DNA of 64,000 nt, taken from the IMG/VR virus record IMGVR_UViG_3300025154_000071, positions 1 through 64,000 of that record; one strand, 5' to 3'. The stretch's first letter is position 1; every line of letters starts with the position of its first letter. The position numbers were made by a program, and so were the translations under genes. This stretch comes from a virus (taxonomy: Duplodnaviria > Caudoviricetes). The notes beneath the pieces were generated by a model. That model searched no databases. It was given only the letters and a program-made list of their open reading frames with translations, and had not been told where the DNA came from. This document shows positions 1-64,000 of the stretch, piece after piece.

Positions 1-1089
1 GCAACGACTGTTCAAACTGCCGTTGATACGATTGCAGTAATGTTATTAGCGCATGATATTGATTTAGACTCGATAGCAGTTGCTATCAATAATCTTGATT
101 TGAGATTAGATAGTGCAGAGACTAAAATAAATAATATTGATTTAAGATTAGCAAGCGTTGAAGTAGTGTTTGAGGGAGGTTCCACCGGAGAAGTCATCAC
201 TAGGACCGATGATGGATATACTTGGGAAACACCTTCATCTGGTGTTACAGATCACTTATTATTAAGCAACATTGGCACAAATACTCATGCAACTATTGAT
301 CTATTCATAACAACAGCAGAGGCATTATTAAATCAGATTAATCCTGCTGCATTACCTGATGATAGCACAGCATGGGGATATAAAACAGCAACAGGTTATG
401 GCTATTATCCATCAAGCTCAACTGGTGGTGCTACTGTTGAATGTGTTTTAAATCTTGAATATACTGCACGTTCTCAAGGTGATGCAGCAAGTGGATATTA
501 TCGAATATTCGATTATGATGTGACATCATCTGTTATTATAAGTGGCACTGTTGGAGTTACTCAGAATGGCTTATTTCAATATGAGACTACACATTATGCC
601 ATTAGTACATGGGATGATTCTGGTACAGATAAGTTAAGAATAACAATGACATACGATGTTGATGAAACAAGTGATGTACGAGTGTCATATTATGAAACAT
701 TGCCCTTGATGGCAGTGATACAATCAACTAATGTATTAACCACTGATGGATATTTACAGGATGATTTAGATGATAGATACACTAAGGCTGAAGCAAACGC
801 GGTAACCTCGGAAGAAGTGCTGGTGCATAACGAAGATACGAACGCGCACCTTGCAAAATTCGCCGCCATACCATTAGCGACAGCGATCGAAGACACTGCG
901 ATATTTATCAGCTCAAATGTATTCGAATTCAGCGACGACTACGACACCACCGCCGTAGTGCTGTACCGCAACGGCATCATGCAGCCACGAAGGTTGTTTA
1001 CCACCGCTGACGTGGCGAGTAAGACGCGAGTTACATTTATCAGTGCAGTAAACGACAGCGACGAAATCATTTTCATATCCAATAAATAG
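1..1089 (+). CDS. Tail/tail-fibre-like structural protein, 5' end outside the window
   Basis: Frame is open from base 1 (ATG at 40 is internal). N-terminal coiled-coil-like repeats (NNLDLRLDS/NNIDLRLAS), Thr/Ser/Gly beta-rich body, YTKAEANA motif typical of tail-fibre modules; lies upstream of lysis genes. Confidence 0.6.
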   Translation, partial: ATTVQTAVDTIAVMLLAHDIDLDSIAVAINNLDLRLDSAETKINNIDLRLASVEVVFEGGSTGEVITRTDDGYTWETPSSGVTDHLLLSNIGTNTHATIDLFITTAEALLNQINPAALPDDSTAWGYKTATGYGYYPSSSTGGATVECVLNLEYTARSQGDAASGYYRIFDYDVTSSVIISGTVGVTQNGLFQYETTHYAISTWDDSGTDKLRITMTYDVDETSDVRVSYYETLPLMAVIQSTNVLTTDGYLQDDLDDRYTKAEANAVTSEEVLVHNEDTNAHLAKFAAIPLATAIEDTAIFISSNVFEFSDDYDTTAVVLYRNGIMQPRRLFTTADVASKTRVTFISAVNDSDEIIFISNK

Positions 1090-1102
1090 GAGGAAGTATA
1101 AC

Positions 1103-2545
1103 ATGAAAAAGGTATTATTCATAGCCGTTATCGGTATTTTGTTATTCTCTACGGTAGCATTCGCACAGAGTGGATTCGTAAGCCCGGACCAAGTGATGCC
1201 CAACGCGCCTCACATGGTCAATAATCAGTTGTTCAGGAATGTCCCGTTCATTGGAGCATCCCAAATGAATAGTTATATTGCCAACTCCAGTAACGGGTTT
1301 ATTGGGATGGGCGATAATAACTATATAGCGTATGTTCATTCGGTTTTTAGTGTAAGAGGGTACAAACTGAGGGCATTCAAAATGGTAAACGGAAGAATAA
1401 CCCAAAAAGGCCCGATTTTGCTTACCGAAGACTTGGACAACAAATACGAACCAGTAATGGTGTCGTTATCTGCTACGAATGCAGTTTTTTGCATCTCAAA
1501 CTACAGTACCAGTTTGAGGTCCTACTGTGTTACTTTGAATCCCTCAACATTGACCTTGACAATGAGCGCGGCACACAATGACACTACCGCATCGTATATA
1601 TGTGGTATTTTTTTAAATCTGATGAGGTATTCAGACACCCAAGCCATTCTGACCACCTTCGACGCAGGAGCAAATAAGACAACGATGAGATATATCAATA
1701 CATCGGCAGGAAGTATAACAAGCGTGAGCGGGCACGTATCCGATTCTTTTTCCTATACTTCCTCGGCATTACATAGTGGAATGGTGACGGACAACCATTT
1801 TACATCGTTTACTGTGAATAATGGTAGTAATTATATTCAAACAGTTTATGCGAACGGAAGCGGATTCACCAGAAGTGCATTCTCGACTACTGCAATAAGC
1901 CCTGGCACAAACATGACTGGTATATTTTTTAGGGGCAAAGGAAGAGCGACAGCGATAGCAGGTGTCGCATTTGCCTATTCAAACAACACCCTTGATGTAG
2001 GTTCTACCAACCCTGTGCATTATGTGGTTTCGAACTCGACATCCTCTGCGTTGTACAATACCGATGCCGGGGACATTTACCAAAAAATTTCAATCGCAAT
2101 AGACGACACTTACGCTGTTTTATTAGGAGTTCGAAGCAATTCCAATATGAATGTTCCGATACTTTTTTTGTTAGGATTCGATAATGAGCAGACCGTCACC
2201 ACAGCGCAACAAATAAACGCAAATATTAGCATATGCGATATAAAGTATCTGGTCAATATGCCAATAGACCCTTATGTGACAGGAGGAACGTCACAAGCCA
2301 ATAGGTCCTACACCCCATTCGTTAGCATTTATTTGCAGAGTTCGTCTAATTACAGTTTGTCTCCGGCAAATAAAAACTATTGGTATTACGATTCCAACGA
2401 AAAGATTTTGTATTTCGGAGCACCTTGGGGTTGGCAAGGCAATCAAGAGGGTTCTAAAGCAAACGCCTCCACATTTATGATAGTCCCAATCAAGATTGAA
2501 ATAGACGAAGCGGGGGCAAGGTTTGGAACGCTTAACCTTAAATAA
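1103..2545 (+). CDS. Signal-peptide-bearing beta-rich protein (possible propeller/adhesin)
   Basis: GGAGG RBS; MKKVLFIAVIGILLFSTVAFA|Q Sec-type leader; Ser/Thr/Asn-rich beta strands. Function unknown. Confidence 0.6.
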   Translation: MKKVLFIAVIGILLFSTVAFAQSGFVSPDQVMPNAPHMVNNQLFRNVPFIGASQMNSYIANSSNGFIGMGDNNYIAYVHSVFSVRGYKLRAFKMVNGRITQKGPILLTEDLDNKYEPVMVSLSATNAVFCISNYSTSLRSYCVTLNPSTLTLTMSAAHNDTTASYICGIFLNLMRYSDTQAILTTFDAGANKTTMRYINTSAGSITSVSGHVSDSFSYTSSALHSGMVTDNHFTSFTVNNGSNYIQTVYANGSGFTRSAFSTTAISPGTNMTGIFFRGKGRATAIAGVAFAYSNNTLDVGSTNPVHYVVSNSTSSALYNTDAGDIYQKISIAIDDTYAVLLGVRSNSNMNVPILFLLGFDNEQTVTTAQQINANISICDIKYLVNMPIDPYVTGGTSQANRSYTPFVSIYLQSSSNYSLSPANKNYWYYDSNEKILYFGAPWGWQGNQEGSKANASTFMIVPIKIEIDEAGARFGTLNLK

Positions 2546-7079: not shown

Positions 7080-7163
7080 ATGAAACGAAGTGAATTTTAC
7101 GCCACCATGTGCATTGTTATCATACTTTGCTCGATGTCAACGGTTTTTGCCGTTATAGTATAG
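7080..7163 (+). pseudogene. Orphan 27-aa signal-peptide ORF, paralogous to the N-terminus of 8147..8617
   Basis: MKRSEFYATMCIVIILCSMSTVFAVIV* versus MLKRSEFYTFMVILMVFLGFSVSHAV; has its own RBS. Confidence 0.6.
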
Positions 7164-7171
7164 GAGTTTAT

Positions 7172-8143
7172 ATGAAACGCATTATTTATAAAATTACAAA
7201 TTTAATAAACAACAAAATATATATTGGCCAAACTAAAAATTTTGAGCAAAGAGTCAAAGCGCACTGCAAAGCTAATCGACAACGCCCAACATTAATATCA
7301 AAGACTATACAAAAATATGGCAAAGAGAATTTTGCTTTTGAAATACTCTATAAAGTTGATGAATCAGAAATAGACCAATTAGAAATTCAAACCATACAAA
7401 AATTTGATTGTATATGTCCGAAAGGATACAATTTAAGCCTTGGCGGCGACACGATAAGGCAACATAGTGAAGAAACGAAAGAGAAAATAAGAAAAACAAA
7501 AACGGGAAGAAAAAATTCAGAAGAATCGAAAAGAAAACTATCAGAAACGTGGAAAAAGCAAGGAGTTTGGAATAAGGGTCTTAAAATGTCCGAAGAATAT
7601 ATAAAAAAGAACTGTGGAAAAACTAAAGGAAAGGTTTCGCCGTTAAGAGGTCGTAAGATGTCAGATGAGCAAAGAAACAAAATGTCTGTAATACAAAAGC
7701 AATATTTCAAAGAGCATCCCGAAGCACTCATTAGATTATCTATGGCGTCTAAAGGCCGTCCCTCTCCCAAAAAAGGCATTCCTCTTTCTGATGAAACAAA
7801 AAAGAAGTTATCCATATCTAAAACTGGACAGAAACATACAGAGGAATCCAAAAAGAAAATGAGTTTATCTCATATGGGGCATCCAAGCTATACAAAAGGG
7901 AGAAAGAGTACGGAAGAGGAAAATAAAAAAAGATCTGAATCAATGAAAAGAGCATATCAGACACATCCCGAAATTAAAGAGAAAAAATCTCGGTCAATGA
8001 AACTGGCATACGCCAAAAATCCGCAACTATTGCAAAAACGTTCTGAACGGATGAAGGCTTTTTATGCCAGTATGACAGAACAACAAAAGCGAGATTTCTT
8101 TAAAAATAGGGTTAATAAAAATAAAAATAAAATTGGAGAGTGA
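7172..8143 (+). CDS. GIY-YIG homing endonuclease with many NUMOD3 repeats
   Basis: IIYKITNLINNKIYIGQT...R...H; GYN; repeated HSEETKEKI/HTEESKKKMS motifs; start 7172 after AGGAG. Confidence 0.93.
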   Translation: MKRIIYKITNLINNKIYIGQTKNFEQRVKAHCKANRQRPTLISKTIQKYGKENFAFEILYKVDESEIDQLEIQTIQKFDCICPKGYNLSLGGDTIRQHSEETKEKIRKTKTGRKNSEESKRKLSETWKKQGVWNKGLKMSEEYIKKNCGKTKGKVSPLRGRKMSDEQRNKMSVIQKQYFKEHPEALIRLSMASKGRPSPKKGIPLSDETKKKLSISKTGQKHTEESKKKMSLSHMGHPSYTKGRKSTEEENKKRSESMKRAYQTHPEIKEKKSRSMKLAYAKNPQLLQKRSERMKAFYASMTEQQKRDFFKNRVNKNKNKIGE

Positions 8144-38374: not shown

Positions 38375-38403
38375 ATTTTAGCATAGATGTTTCTAAATGT
38401 CAA
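38375..38403 (-). promoter_or_regulatory. sigma70 promoter of the replication operon
   Basis: TTGACA-17 bp-TAAAAT with TG extension. Confidence 0.8.
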
Positions 38404-47805: not shown

Positions 47806-47834
47806 ATTATATCATACTTTTATGAATATGTCAA
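47806..47834 (-). promoter_or_regulatory. Consensus sigma70 promoter
   Basis: TTGACA-17 bp-TATAAT with TG extension. Confidence 0.85.
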
Positions 47835-57400: not shown

Positions 57401-59253
57401 CTGCTTCACGATATTTATCATTACGAGCAAACGATTTTAACGAGCATATCGTTACGAGAACAAATAACTCGTTTTTGCTGATATCAGGCTTTTCTATAGG
57501 CAACATCTTGGTTAAGAAATGATCTGGATGTAAGGAAATATGCAGTCCCAGGTCTTTGCCATTGAATGTGATATGCTCGACAAGAAACTTATCAGGCGAT
57601 GGAATATATGGAGGCACTGCCTTGCCAAATGGTTCGGGCGCTGTCTGGACATCGATTGCTACTAATTCTCCCTCCATGTCGTAACAGGAGAAATTAGTAC
57701 GAGAACCGCTATCCCAACATGAACGCAATGTTCGAGGAGTGTCTGATATTGACACTCTGATGTTTGTTCCTGAATAGCCTGTCAATGATTTAAGTTTGTC
57801 GAACAGTGGTGATTTATTTAACCATATTGCCTCCATGTTATCTCTCCTCCCTAATAACGCGATACCAGGCGGCATCGCAGTGTTTGCACTCATATAAGAT
57901 ACGATAGTCTTCGTTGCTTATTTTGATACAGTCGTGATGCCCGCAAAATGGGCAGTATGTGAACATATATGCCTCCTAGTCTCTGTTATACATTGCCTGA
58001 GCCATCGCTACTCTATAGCGATAAATAGGATTGTGTTTTAAAACAAACTTTTTATATTTGTCCATATTGTGCCTCCAACATCGTTTTTAATTCAAAATTG
58101 CCGCCAAACATTATCATGCCAGATGCGATTGACCTTGGTACAATAAATGTCTCACCTGTGTCGATATCAGTGACGCGAATGATAGGACCACCTAAAAACT
58201 TATCTAACCCGAAAAATGAATTGCTTGTTACCATAATATTCCCTCCTGTTTAATAATTTATTTGTGATGAAATAACCTATAACTCCACCTATTAGCACCG
58301 AAATAATAATTGTCATGTTATTCCTCCTTATCCTTTTTTAGCATATCTTTAATGTCGTGAATGTTATGGAATATATCAACTATCAGATAAAATGCAACGA
58401 ATCCTAAAAAATAGGTAATGTATGTCGGGATATTTTGAATTATTGATGCATTGATAGCTGACATGATAACTGTAAATGCAATAATTATTATTTTTTCTTC
58501 GGACATATGGTTCCTCCTTTTACTCAATTACAATATATGCCCCAATCATCCCGCCCCTGTGGTCACTGTCTACGTCTTTTAATATTTTAATGCAGTTGAA
58601 AATATCAAAACATTTTTGCTCTGGATTTATAAACTGCTTTAGATATAACGGGATGAGAAACTCATTGTCTGAACTCCATTTTTTAAACCCCAAAGAGATT
58701 GCTTGGTCGCGAGTTAAGTCATTAATGTATGGCAAATTGTTTTCGAATGGTCTAATTATGGAATCTTTTGTTTCTATTATGTTTTTAATCTTAAATTTGT
58801 CTGTCCAATCATATTCTATTGCTTCGGCCACTGATGATAGAAGGCTATTTCTTGCTTGACATAAAAAGTATAAACGTCCATAATATTTCCTCCTTAAAAA
58901 TAAAAGCCACCACTATTTTAATTTAGCGATGGCTTTCTGTAATATGTCCTCAAAATTAGACGGTTGAGATGCCGTCTTGACCTTTTGTATTGGTTTAATA
59001 GGTCTATAAGGCTGGTCAATGGCCTTAATGACCTGATGAATTGGCTTTACCATGCTATCTGTATTTCAGATACAAGCGTGTTCTTTGATCTAATTACTTC
59101 AATAACGCCGCCAACCAGGACGCCATATATCGCAGGATCGTCAGGGAAGTCTTCGATGAAATTATTGTAGTTATTAAGCGTTACCATTGATATAGAGTCA
59201 TGAAGAGTCAAAAATACTGTAATTCCATTTACTATAATCATAATAGCCTCCAT
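54460..59253 (-). other. Run of short accessory ORFs
   Basis: 54460-54657, 54675-55106, 55116-55463, 55460-55693, 55703-55909, 55875-56189, 56179-56550, 56462-56668, 56671-56868, 57001-57210, 57207-57893, 58052-58234, 58318-58527, 58520-58831, 59047-59253. Confidence 0.6.
58896..58936 (-). terminator. Intrinsic terminator
   Basis: AAAGCCAUCGCUA/UAGUGGUGGCUUU stem (G-U pairs valid on minus) followed by UUUUAUUUUU. Confidence 0.75.
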
Positions 59254-59269
59254 TATATTTATTGGTCTA

Positions 59270-60150
59270 AATAAAATGACCGCCGCTACATTTCTGTAAT
59301 GACGGTCGGGTCTCCGTCGTTATTTTATCTTATCTGCATAATCCTAACGATTGGGTCTTATGCAGCACATATAGCCACATTGTCAATGCGGTCTATATGT
59401 GGAATTGGTGGTTACATATTACGGTCTAACCACTTGACCGGATTGGTATGCCCGCTATCATCTATATCCATTTTTATGGTCACCGTCAGGTGTTGCCATT
59501 CTTATGGTCGGCATATCCAACCAGTGCCGCATATATCACGGTCTTCCCTATGATAGACATATCAAGTGATATAAATATCACCGTCTATCAATTATGTTAT
59601 CTACTGGCTTCATTGAGGTGTATTGATAAATACACCGTCTATCAGTCTTCCACTGATATGCCGCATCCGTATCGTCCAGGCGGATTCACTCAGCCGTCCA
59701 GAGGATCGTTTGTGCTCGATAACACAACATAAACCATATATCGATATCAAAGCACGGTCGCAGTATTACACTTTGATATATGATTTATTTCGCTATTTTA
59801 TTTTATCCTGGATTTTTTAGACAAAGCGATATTATTAGCAATTTATTGCTTAATTGCTTTTATCTTTAAAATCATAAGATTTTTATACTTACTTGCGACT
59901 AATCTAATTACTTTGATTAGATTTTTACCGCTTATTAAATGTATTTAATTTAACCCATATTCAAACAATATAACCGCTTGTTTGTTATCCGGTATTAAAT
60001 TAATTGATCTTTCATCTTCCAGGCTTATTCATGCTTAAAAATCAATTTGACCCGCTTGTCAGAAGGTATGGATTAATTTCATAAGACTTACTTTTCGACC
60101 TGTCCGATTATTCAATCTTATAATGCTTTTTGTTTATTCTATACTTATCA
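59270..60150 (-). ncRNA. Candidate large structured non-coding RNA
   Basis: No RBS-supported ORF; more than 12 nested stems; G-U pairs mostly valid on the minus strand only. Confidence 0.6.
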
Positions 60151-60190
60151 CCGTCCTATTAATCAATTTATAATGGTATGATATTAAAAT

Positions 60191-60225
60191 GCTAGCATAA
60201 CTAATCAATTTCAAGTTATGCTAGC
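60191..60225. other. Perfect 11-bp inverted repeat
   Basis: GCTAGCATAAC-13 nt-GTTATGCTAGC just after the stop of 60235..60780; terminator, processing site or operator. Confidence 0.6.
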
Positions 60226-60234
60226 GGGTATATA

Positions 60235-60780
60235 TTATTTTATGAAGTTAAGTAATTCGTCATATTTGTTGGTGAGCGTCTTGACCGTTTTAGCGTCAAT
60301 TTGTTGTAATTCTGCTGATACAAAATTTTCAGCGGTTATAAACTCCGGTAAGGTAAAGTTTTCGTCAATAGTTAAGTTTGCCGTCTTTACTTTACTTTCC
60401 GTAAATTTATCGGCTAAAAATGCTATTAAATCGGTCTTTTTGACCTCGTAAAAGTCTTTTTTGGAATTGAATATTGATATGAGGCGTTTAAGCGTCTTGG
60501 CGCCATACCGAACCGATAGCATTATGTCAATATCTGCGGTATCAATGACTTGTCTAAGAAAATTCTGAAATAGGTATTTTAATGCCTTTTTTTCGAGCAG
60601 AAAATTGATTTTCGCGTATAATTCAAAATGAATAGACTGAAAATCAATTTTGTCGATTTCGATGATGTTCCCGTTGTTTTTGACTAATTTTTCGTTAATC
60701 GCCGTGATGGTTGACAAAAAGTTTACCTTTTCCTGCTCGAAAGAATAATTGACGAGATAGTTTGCTTTAATTTTTTTCAT
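60235..60780 (-). CDS. Hypothetical protein (181 aa)
   Basis: AGGTGG RBS; no recognisable motif. Confidence 0.65.
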   Translation of the reverse strand: MKKIKANYLVNYSFEQEKVNFLSTITAINEKLVKNNGNIIEIDKIDFQSIHFELYAKINFLLEKKALKYLFQNFLRQVIDTADIDIMLSVRYGAKTLKRLISIFNSKKDFYEVKKTDLIAFLADKFTESKVKTANLTIDENFTLPEFITAENFVSAELQQIDAKTVKTLTNKYDELLNFIK

Positions 60781-60894
60781 TTTGTACCACCTACTATAAT
60801 ATTCAAGTTTTTTAATAGATACTTGTAAACTATGCTTGTAAACTATGATTGATTTTTTATGATAATTCTGGAGCCCGAGCGGAACGTGACGCGC

Positions 60895-61002
60895 CTATTT
60901 TTCTAATTGGCTCATAAGTTTTTCGAGCATTGCTAATATTTTCGGCGTTGGTGTCGCGCGTAGAAGAGTATCGACCTTTTGACTGATTTTTTCGCTTTTC
61001 AT
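60895..61002 (-). CDS. 35-aa ORF, first gene of the leftward transcript
   Basis: GAGGT RBS; MKSEKISQKVDTLLRATPTPKILAMLEKLMSQLEK. Confidence 0.5.
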   Translation of the reverse strand: MKSEKISQKVDTLLRATPTPKILAMLEKLMSQLEK

Positions 61003-61062
61003 GTTATTACCTCTCTTTTAGTTTTTTTGTTGATGTTTATCTCTCAACCCCTTGCAATATTA

Positions 61063-61091
61063 ATTATAACACAAAAGATAGCATAAATCAA
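61063..61091 (-). promoter_or_regulatory. Leftward sigma70 promoter
   Basis: TTGATT-17 bp-TATAAT with TG extension. Confidence 0.7.
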
Positions 61092-61489
61092 GTTATTTTA
61101 ACAATTATTTTAGAATATTTATATTTTTTAGAACATCCTCAAAATATAGATTAAATATAGTATTATCGAAATATTAGTATATTATATAATGTATATATAT
61201 GATATATAATCAATATATAATGGTAGATATTTCACCTTAAGACCGCTTGACCGTATTTGTATCAATTTGAGAATATTTGTATCAAAATGAGAGCGCTCAA
61301 TGATATCAAGTGTTATCGGCATGCATCCTTGAAGCCAGGCTCTACCACTGCATTATTAGTTTATTTGAATATTCTGATATTCTGAAAACATGCGTGCATA
61401 AAGGATTATGAGCAGGGGGGGTTGTAATAGGAGAAATTTTTTGAGGGGCATGAGGGCTTAACAGTACACATATACAAGTGGGTTAAAAA

Positions 61490-61559
61490 TCAACCCCACC
61501 CTACGTTTTCATAGATTCTCCCTCATATATAAGTGACCATCTTTTCAACCCCACCCTAC
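61490..61559. repeat. 15-bp direct repeat x2
   Basis: TCAACCCCACCCTAC at 61490 and 61545. Confidence 0.85.
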
Positions 61560-61634
61560 AGTAACACAGTCTTTATCGCACATAAACGAGCATAATCCGG
61601 TGGTTATCCTGCATATAGAGCAATCTATAAATTA

Positions 61635-61668
61635 TGCACAAAATATGTGCATGCACTAAAATAGTGCA
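61635..61668. promoter_or_regulatory. Two abutting 17-bp palindromes (operator-like)
   Basis: TGCAC-N7-GTGCA at 61635-61651 and 61652-61668. Confidence 0.5.
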
Positions 61669-62049
61669 TATCTTATATAGTATGTCTCCCAAAACCGACA
61701 CTGTAGGAAAATCCTATGTTGGCTCAAGCCGACACTATTTATTCTAAACAATCTAAATTCTCATAACATGCATGGGGTAATTGAGCTTTAGCATACCGAA
61801 GCATTAATAAAGCGAAGCGTATTAATGCGAGGATATGATACAGCTCAATTGGGATCAGGACATAGCGATATGCTCGTAATAACGCTCATAAAACGCTATA
61901 CACGGTATATAGGCTGGTGCATGGGTAATGTAAAGGAAGTAGATGAATCTGATGGCGTAATGCTCTTAGATGGCCTTATTTAAAAGGATAATGATAGGTA
62001 GTGCATAGTAGGTGTATAGGTAAAGGAGATAATAATAATAAGTGGTATA

Positions 62050-62169
62050 AATAACAAAAAAGCCTTACAAGGAGCGAAGTAAGGCTTTTCTGCTTAGGAG
62101 GCTGTGTACATCAATGAAATCCAAGAATTAGATTCAGTGACCGGAATAAACAAATGGAGATCAGTCATC
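62050..62169 (-). ncRNA. Candidate ~115-nt small RNA
   Basis: Promoter TTGACA(62204)-17 bp-TAGGAT(62181) with TG extension; terminator stem 62058-62089 followed by a U-tract; only an RBS-less ~24-codon ORF inside. Confidence 0.5.
62056..62089. terminator. Possibly bidirectional intrinsic terminator
   Basis: AAAAGCCTTAC-10 nt-GTAAGGCTTTT with A/T tracts on both sides. Confidence 0.75.
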
Positions 62170-62790
62170 AATATAATCCTAACAAATAAATATGATGATG
62201 TCAAGAATAAATAGAAAATAAAATGAAATATTTTAAAATATTCCTTAAAAACAATTGGTGACAGGTCTTAACGTAAACCACTCCCCAATGGGCGTAGCAA
62301 CATATTGCTCTCCCATTCAAAACTCTTATAAACATTGATTGGTCATAATCCTAAATAAATGTCAAGTTAAATTATTAACTATTTTTATATTTAAACCAGG
62401 GATATGTTAATAAAAGATTGGAATGTTAACATGAAAGATTTATTGCAAACCTATGCCTTAAAATAATCATTTCCTTGCGAAGTAATAGGTCATCGAGTTA
62501 AGCTCCGATAAATGAATCCTTAGAAATACTAAATCGTTTTTAGATACCTTTCTGAGCGTTATAGAGTATATATTAAAATATCCAATGAAATCATAATATA
62601 GTGGAAGCGATATAAATATTAATAGGGAATAAGATAAAGAGAATAGCTATACTACACTATAGTAGTATAGAGTAATGATATATATTTATATTTATGATTA
62701 TGTTACTATTTATTTATAATATATTATTTACGAGTTAATTTAATTTATTAAATTAATGAGTAAATAATATAATTAGCATAGCATTATAAT

Positions 62791-62827
62791 CGCGCGCGCG
62801 AATATCTGCGCACACGCACACGCACGT
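62791..62827. repeat. Alternating purine-pyrimidine tract
   Basis: (CG)5...GCGCACACGCACACGCACG next to a very AT-rich stretch. Confidence 0.8.
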
Positions 62828-62990
62828 ATCAGATACTAAAAGTGAATTGACTCTCATTTACGGCAAATAACAATAAAGATATACTTGAAAGATAGCGTGG
62901 TTATTGGCGCTCGGCAAGTGCATATGAAATATCTAATCAGTTCGTTGCCATTGCTATAAAAATATTTTTATATAAATTATTAAAAAGTTC

Positions 62991-63020
62991 TTGACATTCA
63001 ATTTATGTTTATGGTAGAAT
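62991..63020 (+). promoter_or_regulatory. Rightward sigma70 promoter
   Basis: TTGACA-18 bp-TAGAAT with TG extension and an A-rich UP region. Confidence 0.7.
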
Positions 63021-63041
63021 TAAAATTAAGGGGGTGAGGTT

Positions 63042-63218
63042 ATGGAACGGCAAAAAGTCAAACAGCTTATTATCCATTTGCCAGTTGATGTACATAAGAG
63101 TTTAAAAATTCTTTGTGCAGAGCGGCAAGAAACAATGTCGGGAACAATCGCAGAATTAATTCAAACACACGTTAACTTATATAAAATGGAGAAATTTGAT
63201 GAGAAAGATAAACTATAA
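63042..63218 (+). CDS. Ribbon-helix-helix protein 1 (ParG/CopG-like)
   Basis: KQLIIHLPVDVHKSLKILCAERQETMSGTIAELI; GGGGTGAGG RBS. Confidence 0.75.
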   Translation: MERQKVKQLIIHLPVDVHKSLKILCAERQETMSGTIAELIQTHVNLYKMEKFDEKDKL

Positions 63219-63354
63219 TGACAAGATGATCGTATTGGGATATGACACTCATAAAAAAATAAAACTAAGAGCATTCGAAGAGGGGAAAACAATTAAGAGA
63301 TTGATGCAGGAGGTTGTAGATGTCTACTGCCGAACGCCGCACAAAAGAGATTAG
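63199..63354 (+). CDS. Ribbon-helix-helix-like protein 2
   Basis: KMIVLGYDTHKKIKLRAFEEGKTIKRLMQEVV. Confidence 0.65.
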   Translation: MRKINYNDKMIVLGYDTHKKIKLRAFEEGKTIKRLMQEVVDVYCRTPHKRD

Positions 63355-63511
63355 AGAGGTTAGAATTTATATGCCACTCGAACAACATTGTTTTTACAAA
63401 GCATTGGCGGCAAGCATAGGAGTAAGTCTTTCGAAGATTATAGAGATAGAGTTAGAGGCTGGCAAAATAAGAAGGGAAGAAAAAGGAGATAAAAATAATT
63501 ATGACCGTTAA
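63320..63511 (+). CDS. Ribbon-helix-helix-like protein 3
   Basis: EVRIYMPLEQHCFYKALAASIGVSLSKIIE; AGGAGG RBS. Confidence 0.7.
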   Translation: MSTAERRTKEIREVRIYMPLEQHCFYKALAASIGVSLSKIIEIELEAGKIRREEKGDKNNYDR

Positions 63512-63635
63512 AGCAGAAAAGAAGAAATTAATAGGTGGCTATGTTCCTGATGACATTATGGAAAAATTTATACAATTTAAAAAAGATAACAACCTAAACT
63601 CATCATCGGCAATAACTAAAATTATAGAATGGTAA
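63501..63635 (+). CDS. Ribbon-helix-helix-like protein 4
   Basis: KLIGGYVPDDIMEKFIQFKKDNNLNSSSAITKII; AAGGAG RBS. Confidence 0.65.
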   Translation: MTVKAEKKKLIGGYVPDDIMEKFIQFKKDNNLNSSSAITKIIEW

Positions 63636-63648
63636 AGGAGTAGTCAAA

Positions 63649-63792
63649 ATGAAATTAAGTAATTGGGAACAGATGTTATGCTTACTTGCTTATGGAATGG
63701 CTGCTAAATTTCTTAATGGTGGTCTCGAAATGTTTATAGGTTGCATTTCAATAGCAGTATTTATGACAGTAACAAAGAAGGAGCAAAAATGA
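63649..63792 (+). CDS. 47-aa membrane peptide
   Basis: AAGGAG RBS; hydrophobic; ATGA overlap with the next ORF. Confidence 0.55.
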   Translation: MKLSNWEQMLCLLAYGMAAKFLNGGLEMFIGCISIAVFMTVTKKEQK

Positions 63793-64000
63793 AATCAAAA
63801 AGAGAGTTACCTTTTCCGAATGCTAAGCTAGAAAAGAAAGCAATTAAAAGGGTTCATGAGTCAGCGATGCAATTCCTCCAAGAGAGTATGAATGCCTATC
63901 CAGACGATATAGACATTTTATATAACACTAGGTATGAAGCTTTATGCTTTTATAACGGTTGCGAAGGCACAACGGCAGCAGATAAATTCTTTAAGATCGT
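63789..64000 (+). CDS. Hypothetical protein, runs off the window
   Basis: AAGGAG RBS; frame open to base 64000. Confidence 0.55.
   Translation, partial: MKSKRELPFPNAKLEKKAIKRVHESAMQFLQESMNAYPDDIDILYNTRYEALCFYNGCEGTTAADKFFKI

Follow-up and report, generated by a model that had tools for sequence, protein, structure and literature searches.

A large, modular structured RNA candidate at the head of a phage early operon, with a tentative role in terminator read-through

Large RNA elements that act on transcription or on proteins have been described in a few settings, and four of these are useful points of comparison here. In the conAn bipartite antitermination system of Gram-positive conjugative plasmids (ConAn1 protein plus conAn2 RNA), a promoter is followed by a small and poorly conserved protein gene (large forms of about 172 aa and small half-size forms), then by a non-coding region of 260-600 bp that acts as RNA and makes polymerase ignore terminators, and then by a long operon with terminators (PMC8191782). 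Both protein and RNA diverge fast, and an inverted repeat closes the conAn2 element. In phages, HK022 put (about 70 nt) and lambda nut (about 50 nt), each with a single site, are early-operon RNA elements placed before the first terminators, and the lambda N gene is flanked by nutL and tL1. GOLLD and ROOL are large phage-associated RNAs of 0.5-0.9 kb with many helices, whose function is unknown from sequence alone. CsrB/RsmZ-type RNAs are protein sponges in which a short motif, GGA, is repeated many times on hairpins, with the number and sequence of those hairpins drifting while the motif persists.

The locus examined here lies in a 64,000-nt stretch of DNA from a large phage (IMG/VR record IMGVR_UViG_3300025154_000071, positions 1 to 64,000), hereafter the window. 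A minus-strand replication arm of this phage carries DnaE-type polymerase, DnaB helicase, NrdD, SbcC, Sak4 and primase genes, and its closest proteins in GenBank phages are below 30% identical. A first-pass annotation of the sequence alone had proposed that about 0.9 kb (59270-60150) forms a heavily base-paired, novel large phage non-coding RNA read from the minus strand, reminiscent in size and setting of GOLLD/ROOL-class RNAs and possibly acting with the adjacent orphan 181-aa protein. The observation itself was confirmed: the stretch is free of credible genes, and every stem that had been listed reappears in the minimum free energy or consensus folds, several of them backed by compensatory changes in relatives. 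The interpretation was only partly supported. A large, minus-strand, non-coding RNA candidate with real covariation and no known family is upheld, but membership of GOLLD or ROOL is not, the 0.9 kb is two separately assorting domains rather than one indivisible unit, and the 181-aa protein accompanies only one of them. The features of the locus are collected in the table.

Table. Positions in the window of the RNA domains, the predicted terminators and the neighbouring features, with the observations that support each.
Position	Strand	Feature	Supporting observations
62027-62087		Sub-threshold Rfam hit to Enterococcus sRNA RefA9	33.4 bits (gathering score 49); a hit of 33.1 bits lies at the matching place in L011 (148-208)
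61037-62000		Largely ORF-free region upstream of the 181-aa gene	77.5% identical between the window and the IMG/VR relative (L011 235-1209)
61063-61091		Leftward promoter with extended -10, the strongest leftward one in the area	About 0.9 kb upstream of the RNA
60235-60780	-	Orphan gene (181 aa), first gene after the leftward promoter	Homologues at 93, 70, 65 and 42% identity only; no Pfam or PHROG family; AF2 model pLDDT 57.6, too low for a fold search
59254-60234		Gene-free gap between two minus-strand genes	Only short ORFs
60191-60225	-	T1, terminator-like hairpin after the 181-aa gene (12-bp stem, then a U-rich run)	-17.8 kcal/mol, z -6.8; stem rewritten with full complementarity in L005
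59819-60156	-	5' domain (D1, type A), AT-rich and multi-helix, closed by a long-range helix (60146-60156 with 59819-59831)	Consensus fold of the window, L007 and L005: 88 pairs, 96.6% paired, 13 pairs changed on both sides against 0-1 in slid controls
59887-59898	-	12-nt box conserved upstream of P1 in all three kinds of 5' half	Seen in the window, L005, L011, L015 and L040; its only match at one mismatch in the 64-kb window, the four two-mismatch matches being no more than chance gives
59270-59793	-	3' domain (D2), about 525 nt	P1 to P7 plus T2
about 59789-59794	-	Conserved AGCGAA preceding P1	
59729-59788	-	P1, 14-bp hairpin opening the 3' domain	7 of 14 pairs changed on both sides and none broken, in 6 sequences
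59591-59728	-	P2 domain, an 11-bp long-range helix (59718-59728 with 59591-59601) enclosing the core hairpin and two type-specific hairpins	Best partner in an unbiased search 11/11 complementary in types 1 and 3, with 3 compensatory positions; 8 contiguous pairs plus a bulge in type 2
59668-59708	-	P3-P5 core hairpin, the most conserved internal element, with an invariant tandem UG/GU	Covariance model of P1 plus this hairpin scores 131-148 bits in types 1-3
59551-59590	-	P6, helix with an inner hairpin and a 3' internal loop	Outer helix of 6-9 bp at the same place, with different letters, in every type where it was tested (types 1-3)
59527-59549	-	Purine-rich joiner plus P7 (4-bp stem, 7-nt loop)	Present at the same place, the stem reading CCGY/GCGG, CCAC/GUGG or CCAU/AUGG in different types
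59309-59526	-	Variable hairpin array carrying most copies of UAGACSGU	Differs in length (about 220-460 nt) and in sequence between types; hairpin 59408-59433 keeps its motif-bearing loop while the stem letters are swapped in L007 and L011
59270-59307	-	T2, 13-bp hairpin with a GAAA loop, then a U run; 3' end of D2; its 5' arm is a copy of the repeated motif	-17.1 kcal/mol here and -21.1 in L040; nearly invariant in all four types; A-U (A-C in the window) to G-C change in L046
59047-59253	-	Gene following T2	
58913-59053	-	Conserved 46-aa lysine-rich basic protein (pI 10.1) between T2 and T3; candidate partner (inferred only)	Downstream of the RNA in every relative that reaches far enough: L005, L015, L026, L040, L041, L046
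58902-58937	-	T3, terminator hairpin related to T2, overlapping the end of the 46-aa gene and directly before the next ribosome-binding site	-19.5 kcal/mol, z -6.6
47806-47834 and 38375-38403	-	A perfect and a near-perfect consensus promoter, each with extended -10, inside the leftward arm	
7109-8143		GIY-YIG-type homing endonuclease gene among the plus-strand genes	PHROG 314, E 1.4e-39

For 59270-60150, the minus strand folds at -236.4 kcal/mol against -184.6 +/- 6.1 for shuffles (z -8.5), whereas the plus strand gives z -7.1. The strand is fixed as minus by invariant G-U pairs (the tandem UG/GU in P4, two in P2, two in the 3' hairpin), which are valid only in that orientation. The possibility that the region is hidden coding sequence or non-functional, hairpin-rich filler was considered, as ORFs of 46-94 aa overlap it and a 147-aa ORF runs antisense across the longer variable region of type 2 relatives (L005 1332-1775 and L015 419-862). 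However, none of these ORFs is kept across types, their amino-acid identity equals the nucleotide identity, substitutions show no 3-base periodicity (13/9/18 and 11/9/14 by position) and avoid paired columns, and no family hits were obtained. The 147-aa ORF, without a Pfam or PHROG family, is probably spurious. Compensatory changes, and conservation above that of the neighbouring proteins, argue against filler, and this reading is considered most unlikely.

Relatives, designated here by L numbers, were sought outward through neighbouring proteins and two conserved words, and were found only in uncultivated (mostly groundwater) phages; identical and related contigs come from groundwater and similar metagenomes. 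L007 is 93% similar to the window, and L011, identical to L024 and L041 (an IMG/VR UViG), is 90% similar over 59805-58879 but has a different 5' half. In L005 the 5' half is 76% identical, the middle is not alignable and the 3' hairpin matches at 40 of 41 positions, while the neighbouring protein is only 42% identical, so the RNA is under stronger constraint than the protein next to it. L015, L026 and L040 share short conserved blocks only, and L046 is the most distant; its contig starts with about 170 nt of G/A-rich low-complexity sequence (1-170), probably an assembly artefact, and the 5' end of its type 4 RNA may therefore be missing. Matches in L012-L014 and in 21 of the 25 metagenome loci were due to chance in G+C-rich DNA, an apparent variant in L002 is a run of N in a scaffold, and more distant phages (L042-L045, L047-L051) showed no copy in the DNA captured. 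No match was found in GenBank phages by blastn with three divergent versions of the element, in plasmids by tblastn with the 181-aa protein, or in IMG/VR with protein patterns for the 181-aa and 103-aa neighbours, while the pattern for the 228-aa neighbour recovered only the same UViG. A search with the 46-aa protein found one close copy only, and the Atlas gave no lead for the 181-aa or 103-aa proteins.

The 3' half falls into four sequence types and the 5' half into at least three unrelated kinds, and the AT-rich 5' half and the 3' half recombine independently between phages. The 5' half is swapped together with the upstream gene, which is the 181-aa family, a 188-aa family or a 103-aa protein. 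The 181-aa protein travels only with its 5' half (3 of 3 loci), and the conserved 3' domain also occurs behind the unrelated 188-aa family and behind the 103-aa protein. In L015, the type B 5' half (1080-1735, minus strand) carries a duplicated hairpin and many short repeats built around a GTTAAC palindrome, resembling an operator or iteron field rather than RNA structure.

In contrast, the 3' domain keeps one architecture, with all types sharing the order AGCGAA, P1, P2 enclosing the P3-P5 core hairpin, P6, purine-rich joiner, P7, variable hairpin array, A-rich linker and GAAA-capped hairpin with a U run. On the alignment of P1 plus the core in six sequences (28 pairs), all 168 cells are paired and nine pairs change on both sides, a figure reached by 0 of 500 shuffles, with slid controls giving 0-2. 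A covariance model of these two elements finds one copy per locus, but only a weak P1-like match in L046. The 5' domain is also structured, with the caveat that its consensus was derived from the same three sequences on which it was evaluated. Altogether, a genuine conserved structured RNA is very likely, although only about eight distinct sequences from closely related phages exist.

No Rfam family was matched at gathering score on the whole window, none within the RNA at E up to 5 on 58800-64000, and none inside the RNA at E up to 1 on L005, L011, L015, L040 and L046. There is thus no covariance-model match to GOLLD or ROOL, with which the element shares size class, phage setting and a multi-helix fold. 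Moreover, it is not next to tRNAs, of which the window has none, and it is tightly embedded in an operon between terminators. The setting at the head of an early operon, with three terminators in series, points more to a co-transcribed regulatory element than to a free-standing GOLLD-like RNA, without settling the matter.

Of the repeated sequences, the 12-mer occurs exactly twice, while AGAC(C/G) occurs 8 times in 59262-59800 against 1.07 +/- 0.98 in 1000 dinucleotide shuffles (maximum 5), and never on the plus strand. Extended to UAGACSGU, the motif occurs 7-9 times per 3' domain in each of the four types, against 0.9-1.8 expected and a maximum of 5-6 in 1000 shuffles, and it is absent or nearly so on the opposite strand. 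Clusters of 6-9 per 500 nt occur only at the RNA in each locus, with copies at helix starts, in loops and in joiners. A K-turn reading of the motif was dropped because the simple helix is far better. A type III antitoxin (ToxI-like) RNA would be a tandem array of near-identical repeats of about 34-36 nt, but no tandem family is present in 59000-60400, where the longest direct repeats are 10-25 nt and scattered. A TnpB or IS guide RNA was dismissed as no nuclease gene is adjacent, and the 12-nt box was dismissed as a phage promoter word, given its only close copy in the window.

Such an array also suggests a stand-alone, trans-acting RNA with its own start near 59793 and its own terminator T2, whose scaffold would present the motif to soak up or organize a host or phage RNA-binding protein, either as a sponge or decoy in the manner of CsrB/RsmZ or as a large self-assembling RNA like ROOL or GOLLD. 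The motif count is kept while the hairpins that carry it turn over between types, a hallmark of trans-acting sponge RNAs, and the unit ends in a canonical terminator, with a G+C content of 42-44% against about 30% around it. A -10-like box lies 5-7 nt before the conserved AGCGAA in types A and B, and the recombination boundary falls right there, at about 59805, both of which fit an independent transcription unit. However, no conserved -35 element was found and promoter-like sites are not above shuffles. The downstream genes start 30-45 nt after T2 without a promoter of their own, so that polymerase must pass T2 anyway. The motif, AGAC(C/G)G, is not the GGA of Csr/Rsm, the RNA has a large fixed scaffold, no partner is known, and no Rfam sponge or ornate RNA was matched. 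This reading is possible but rather unlikely, only slightly less favored than the one preferred below.

Two further explanations place the function at the DNA level or in replication. In the first, the region would be a replication origin, packaging site or single-strand initiation signal, with hairpins forming in single-stranded minus-sense DNA and the motif serving as a protein-binding iteron. Both strands fold well, the AT-rich half carries direct repeats, the type B 5' half in L015 has its palindromic repeats, and the motif copies all point the same way. Against this, the invariant tandem G-U pairs and many single G-U pairs would be A-C mismatches on the other strand, the element ends in a terminator with a U run and is co-oriented with its neighbours in every locus, the motif sits at irregular spacings and often inside helices, and the replication genes lie 13-30 kb away; this is thought very unlikely. 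In the second, the transcript would be a replication-primer or copy-control RNA in the manner of ColE1 RNA II or the phage T4 R-loop origins, priming or regulating DNA synthesis in the adjacent AT-rich DNA, as suggested by a structured RNA of about 0.5 kb next to a region of 24-29% G+C. However, the AT-rich part lies upstream of the conserved domain rather than downstream, is itself structured with covariation, and is replaced by unrelated sequence in other phages, making this even less likely.

The layout of the operon bears on a role in cis. T1, T2 and T3 all lie within 1.3 kb and conform to intrinsic terminators, with hairpins of -17.1 to -21.1 kcal/mol (z -4.4 to -7.3, L040 copies included), each followed by a U-rich run; T3 and the L040 copies were also picked up by a terminator scan. 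In all seven loci with flanks, the RNA lies on the same strand as the genes that follow it, and its hairpin ends 30-45 nt before their ribosome-binding site, with no promoter-like site scoring above background in between. T2 and T3, each at most 45 nt before the next ribosome-binding site, are the only two matches to their shared arm pattern in the 64-kb window, and the same pair occurs in L005, L040 and L041, T3 being a near copy of T2 in L040. The genes between the 46-aa protein and the RNA differ (68, 79 or 85 aa). Further down the arm there are strong promoters, so the arm is not one transcription unit, but no strong minus-strand terminators. In L040, a 12/12 consensus promoter drives the 103-aa gene and the RNA follows with no terminator between. 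Synteny arguments are nevertheless weak, given the few related phages.

It is therefore tentatively proposed, at less than even likelihood, that the stretch is transcribed on the minus strand as part of, or right behind, the first early transcript of the leftward arm, and that the 3' domain acts in cis as a loading platform deciding whether RNA polymerase reads through T2 and T3 into the early genes. In this view, a factor reading the motif would be gathered on the nascent RNA and would then either occupy the 5' arm of the terminator or modify the polymerase; it could be the 46-aa basic protein, the swappable upstream protein or a host protein. The structure, strand, conservation, motif array, terminators and gene layout are shown here, whereas transcription, the binding factor and antitermination itself are inferred. 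Several points weigh against this proposal. The element is much larger than put, EAR or nut, the link between the motif and the terminator arm rests on only 6-7 nt, and type A has a terminator (T1) in front of the RNA, which would starve a purely co-transcribed element. An antiterminator pairing at 59301-59318 was also rejected, since its upstream arm exists only in type 1.

As to the described antitermination systems, the order of parts is that of conAn, with same-strand genes following in all loci after a gap of 980 nt here, about 1005 nt in L007 and about 810 nt in L040, and a long-range helix closing the 5' domain as an inverted repeat closes conAn2; as in conAn, both protein and RNA diverge fast. 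However, the 181-aa, 188-aa, 103-aa and 190-aa upstream proteins show no hit to the ConAn1 domain (PF17362, pXO2-34) at E up to 10, the host is a phage rather than a plasmid, and the RNA is larger (0.9 kb, two domains), carries a repeated motif and ends in its own terminator. The resemblance is therefore a functional analogy only. Like put and nut, the element is an early-operon phage RNA placed before the first terminators, and, as with N, a small basic protein gene is flanked by the RNA site and a terminator, but the 46-aa protein is lysine-rich and has no family. No sequence or model match to put or nut was seen in the Rfam scans, which included no specific test for the two-hairpin put fold or for boxA plus boxB, and the GAAA-capped hairpin is a 13-bp terminator stem, not a 5-bp boxB.

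The motif array fits a sponge equally well, and the two ideas can be merged if the factor that reads the motif also reads the terminator arm. In a more far-reaching form, considered unlikely, the element would represent a new class of large modular phage RNA built as a terminator-arm mimic array, in which a fixed scaffold displays many copies of the short word that forms the 5' arm of the operon's own terminators. A single sequence-specific RNA-binding factor would be collected, or titrated, on the nascent transcript, setting when polymerase may pass T2 and T3 and providing an RNA-based timer for the early-to-delayed-early switch, with the swappable 5' domain and upstream protein as an exchangeable input module.

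Structured bacterial and phage RNAs above 500 nt are rare, and each class found so far (OLE, GOLLD, ROOL, conAn2) has opened new biology. The present one combines clear covariation from few sequences with a modular build and a repeated motif tied to its own terminator. If it gates terminators, it would extend RNA-based processive antitermination from plasmids and lambdoid phages to large uncultivated phages, in a compact system of promoter, small gene, RNA and terminator. If it is instead a sponge, it points to an unknown RNA-binding protein that these phages target.
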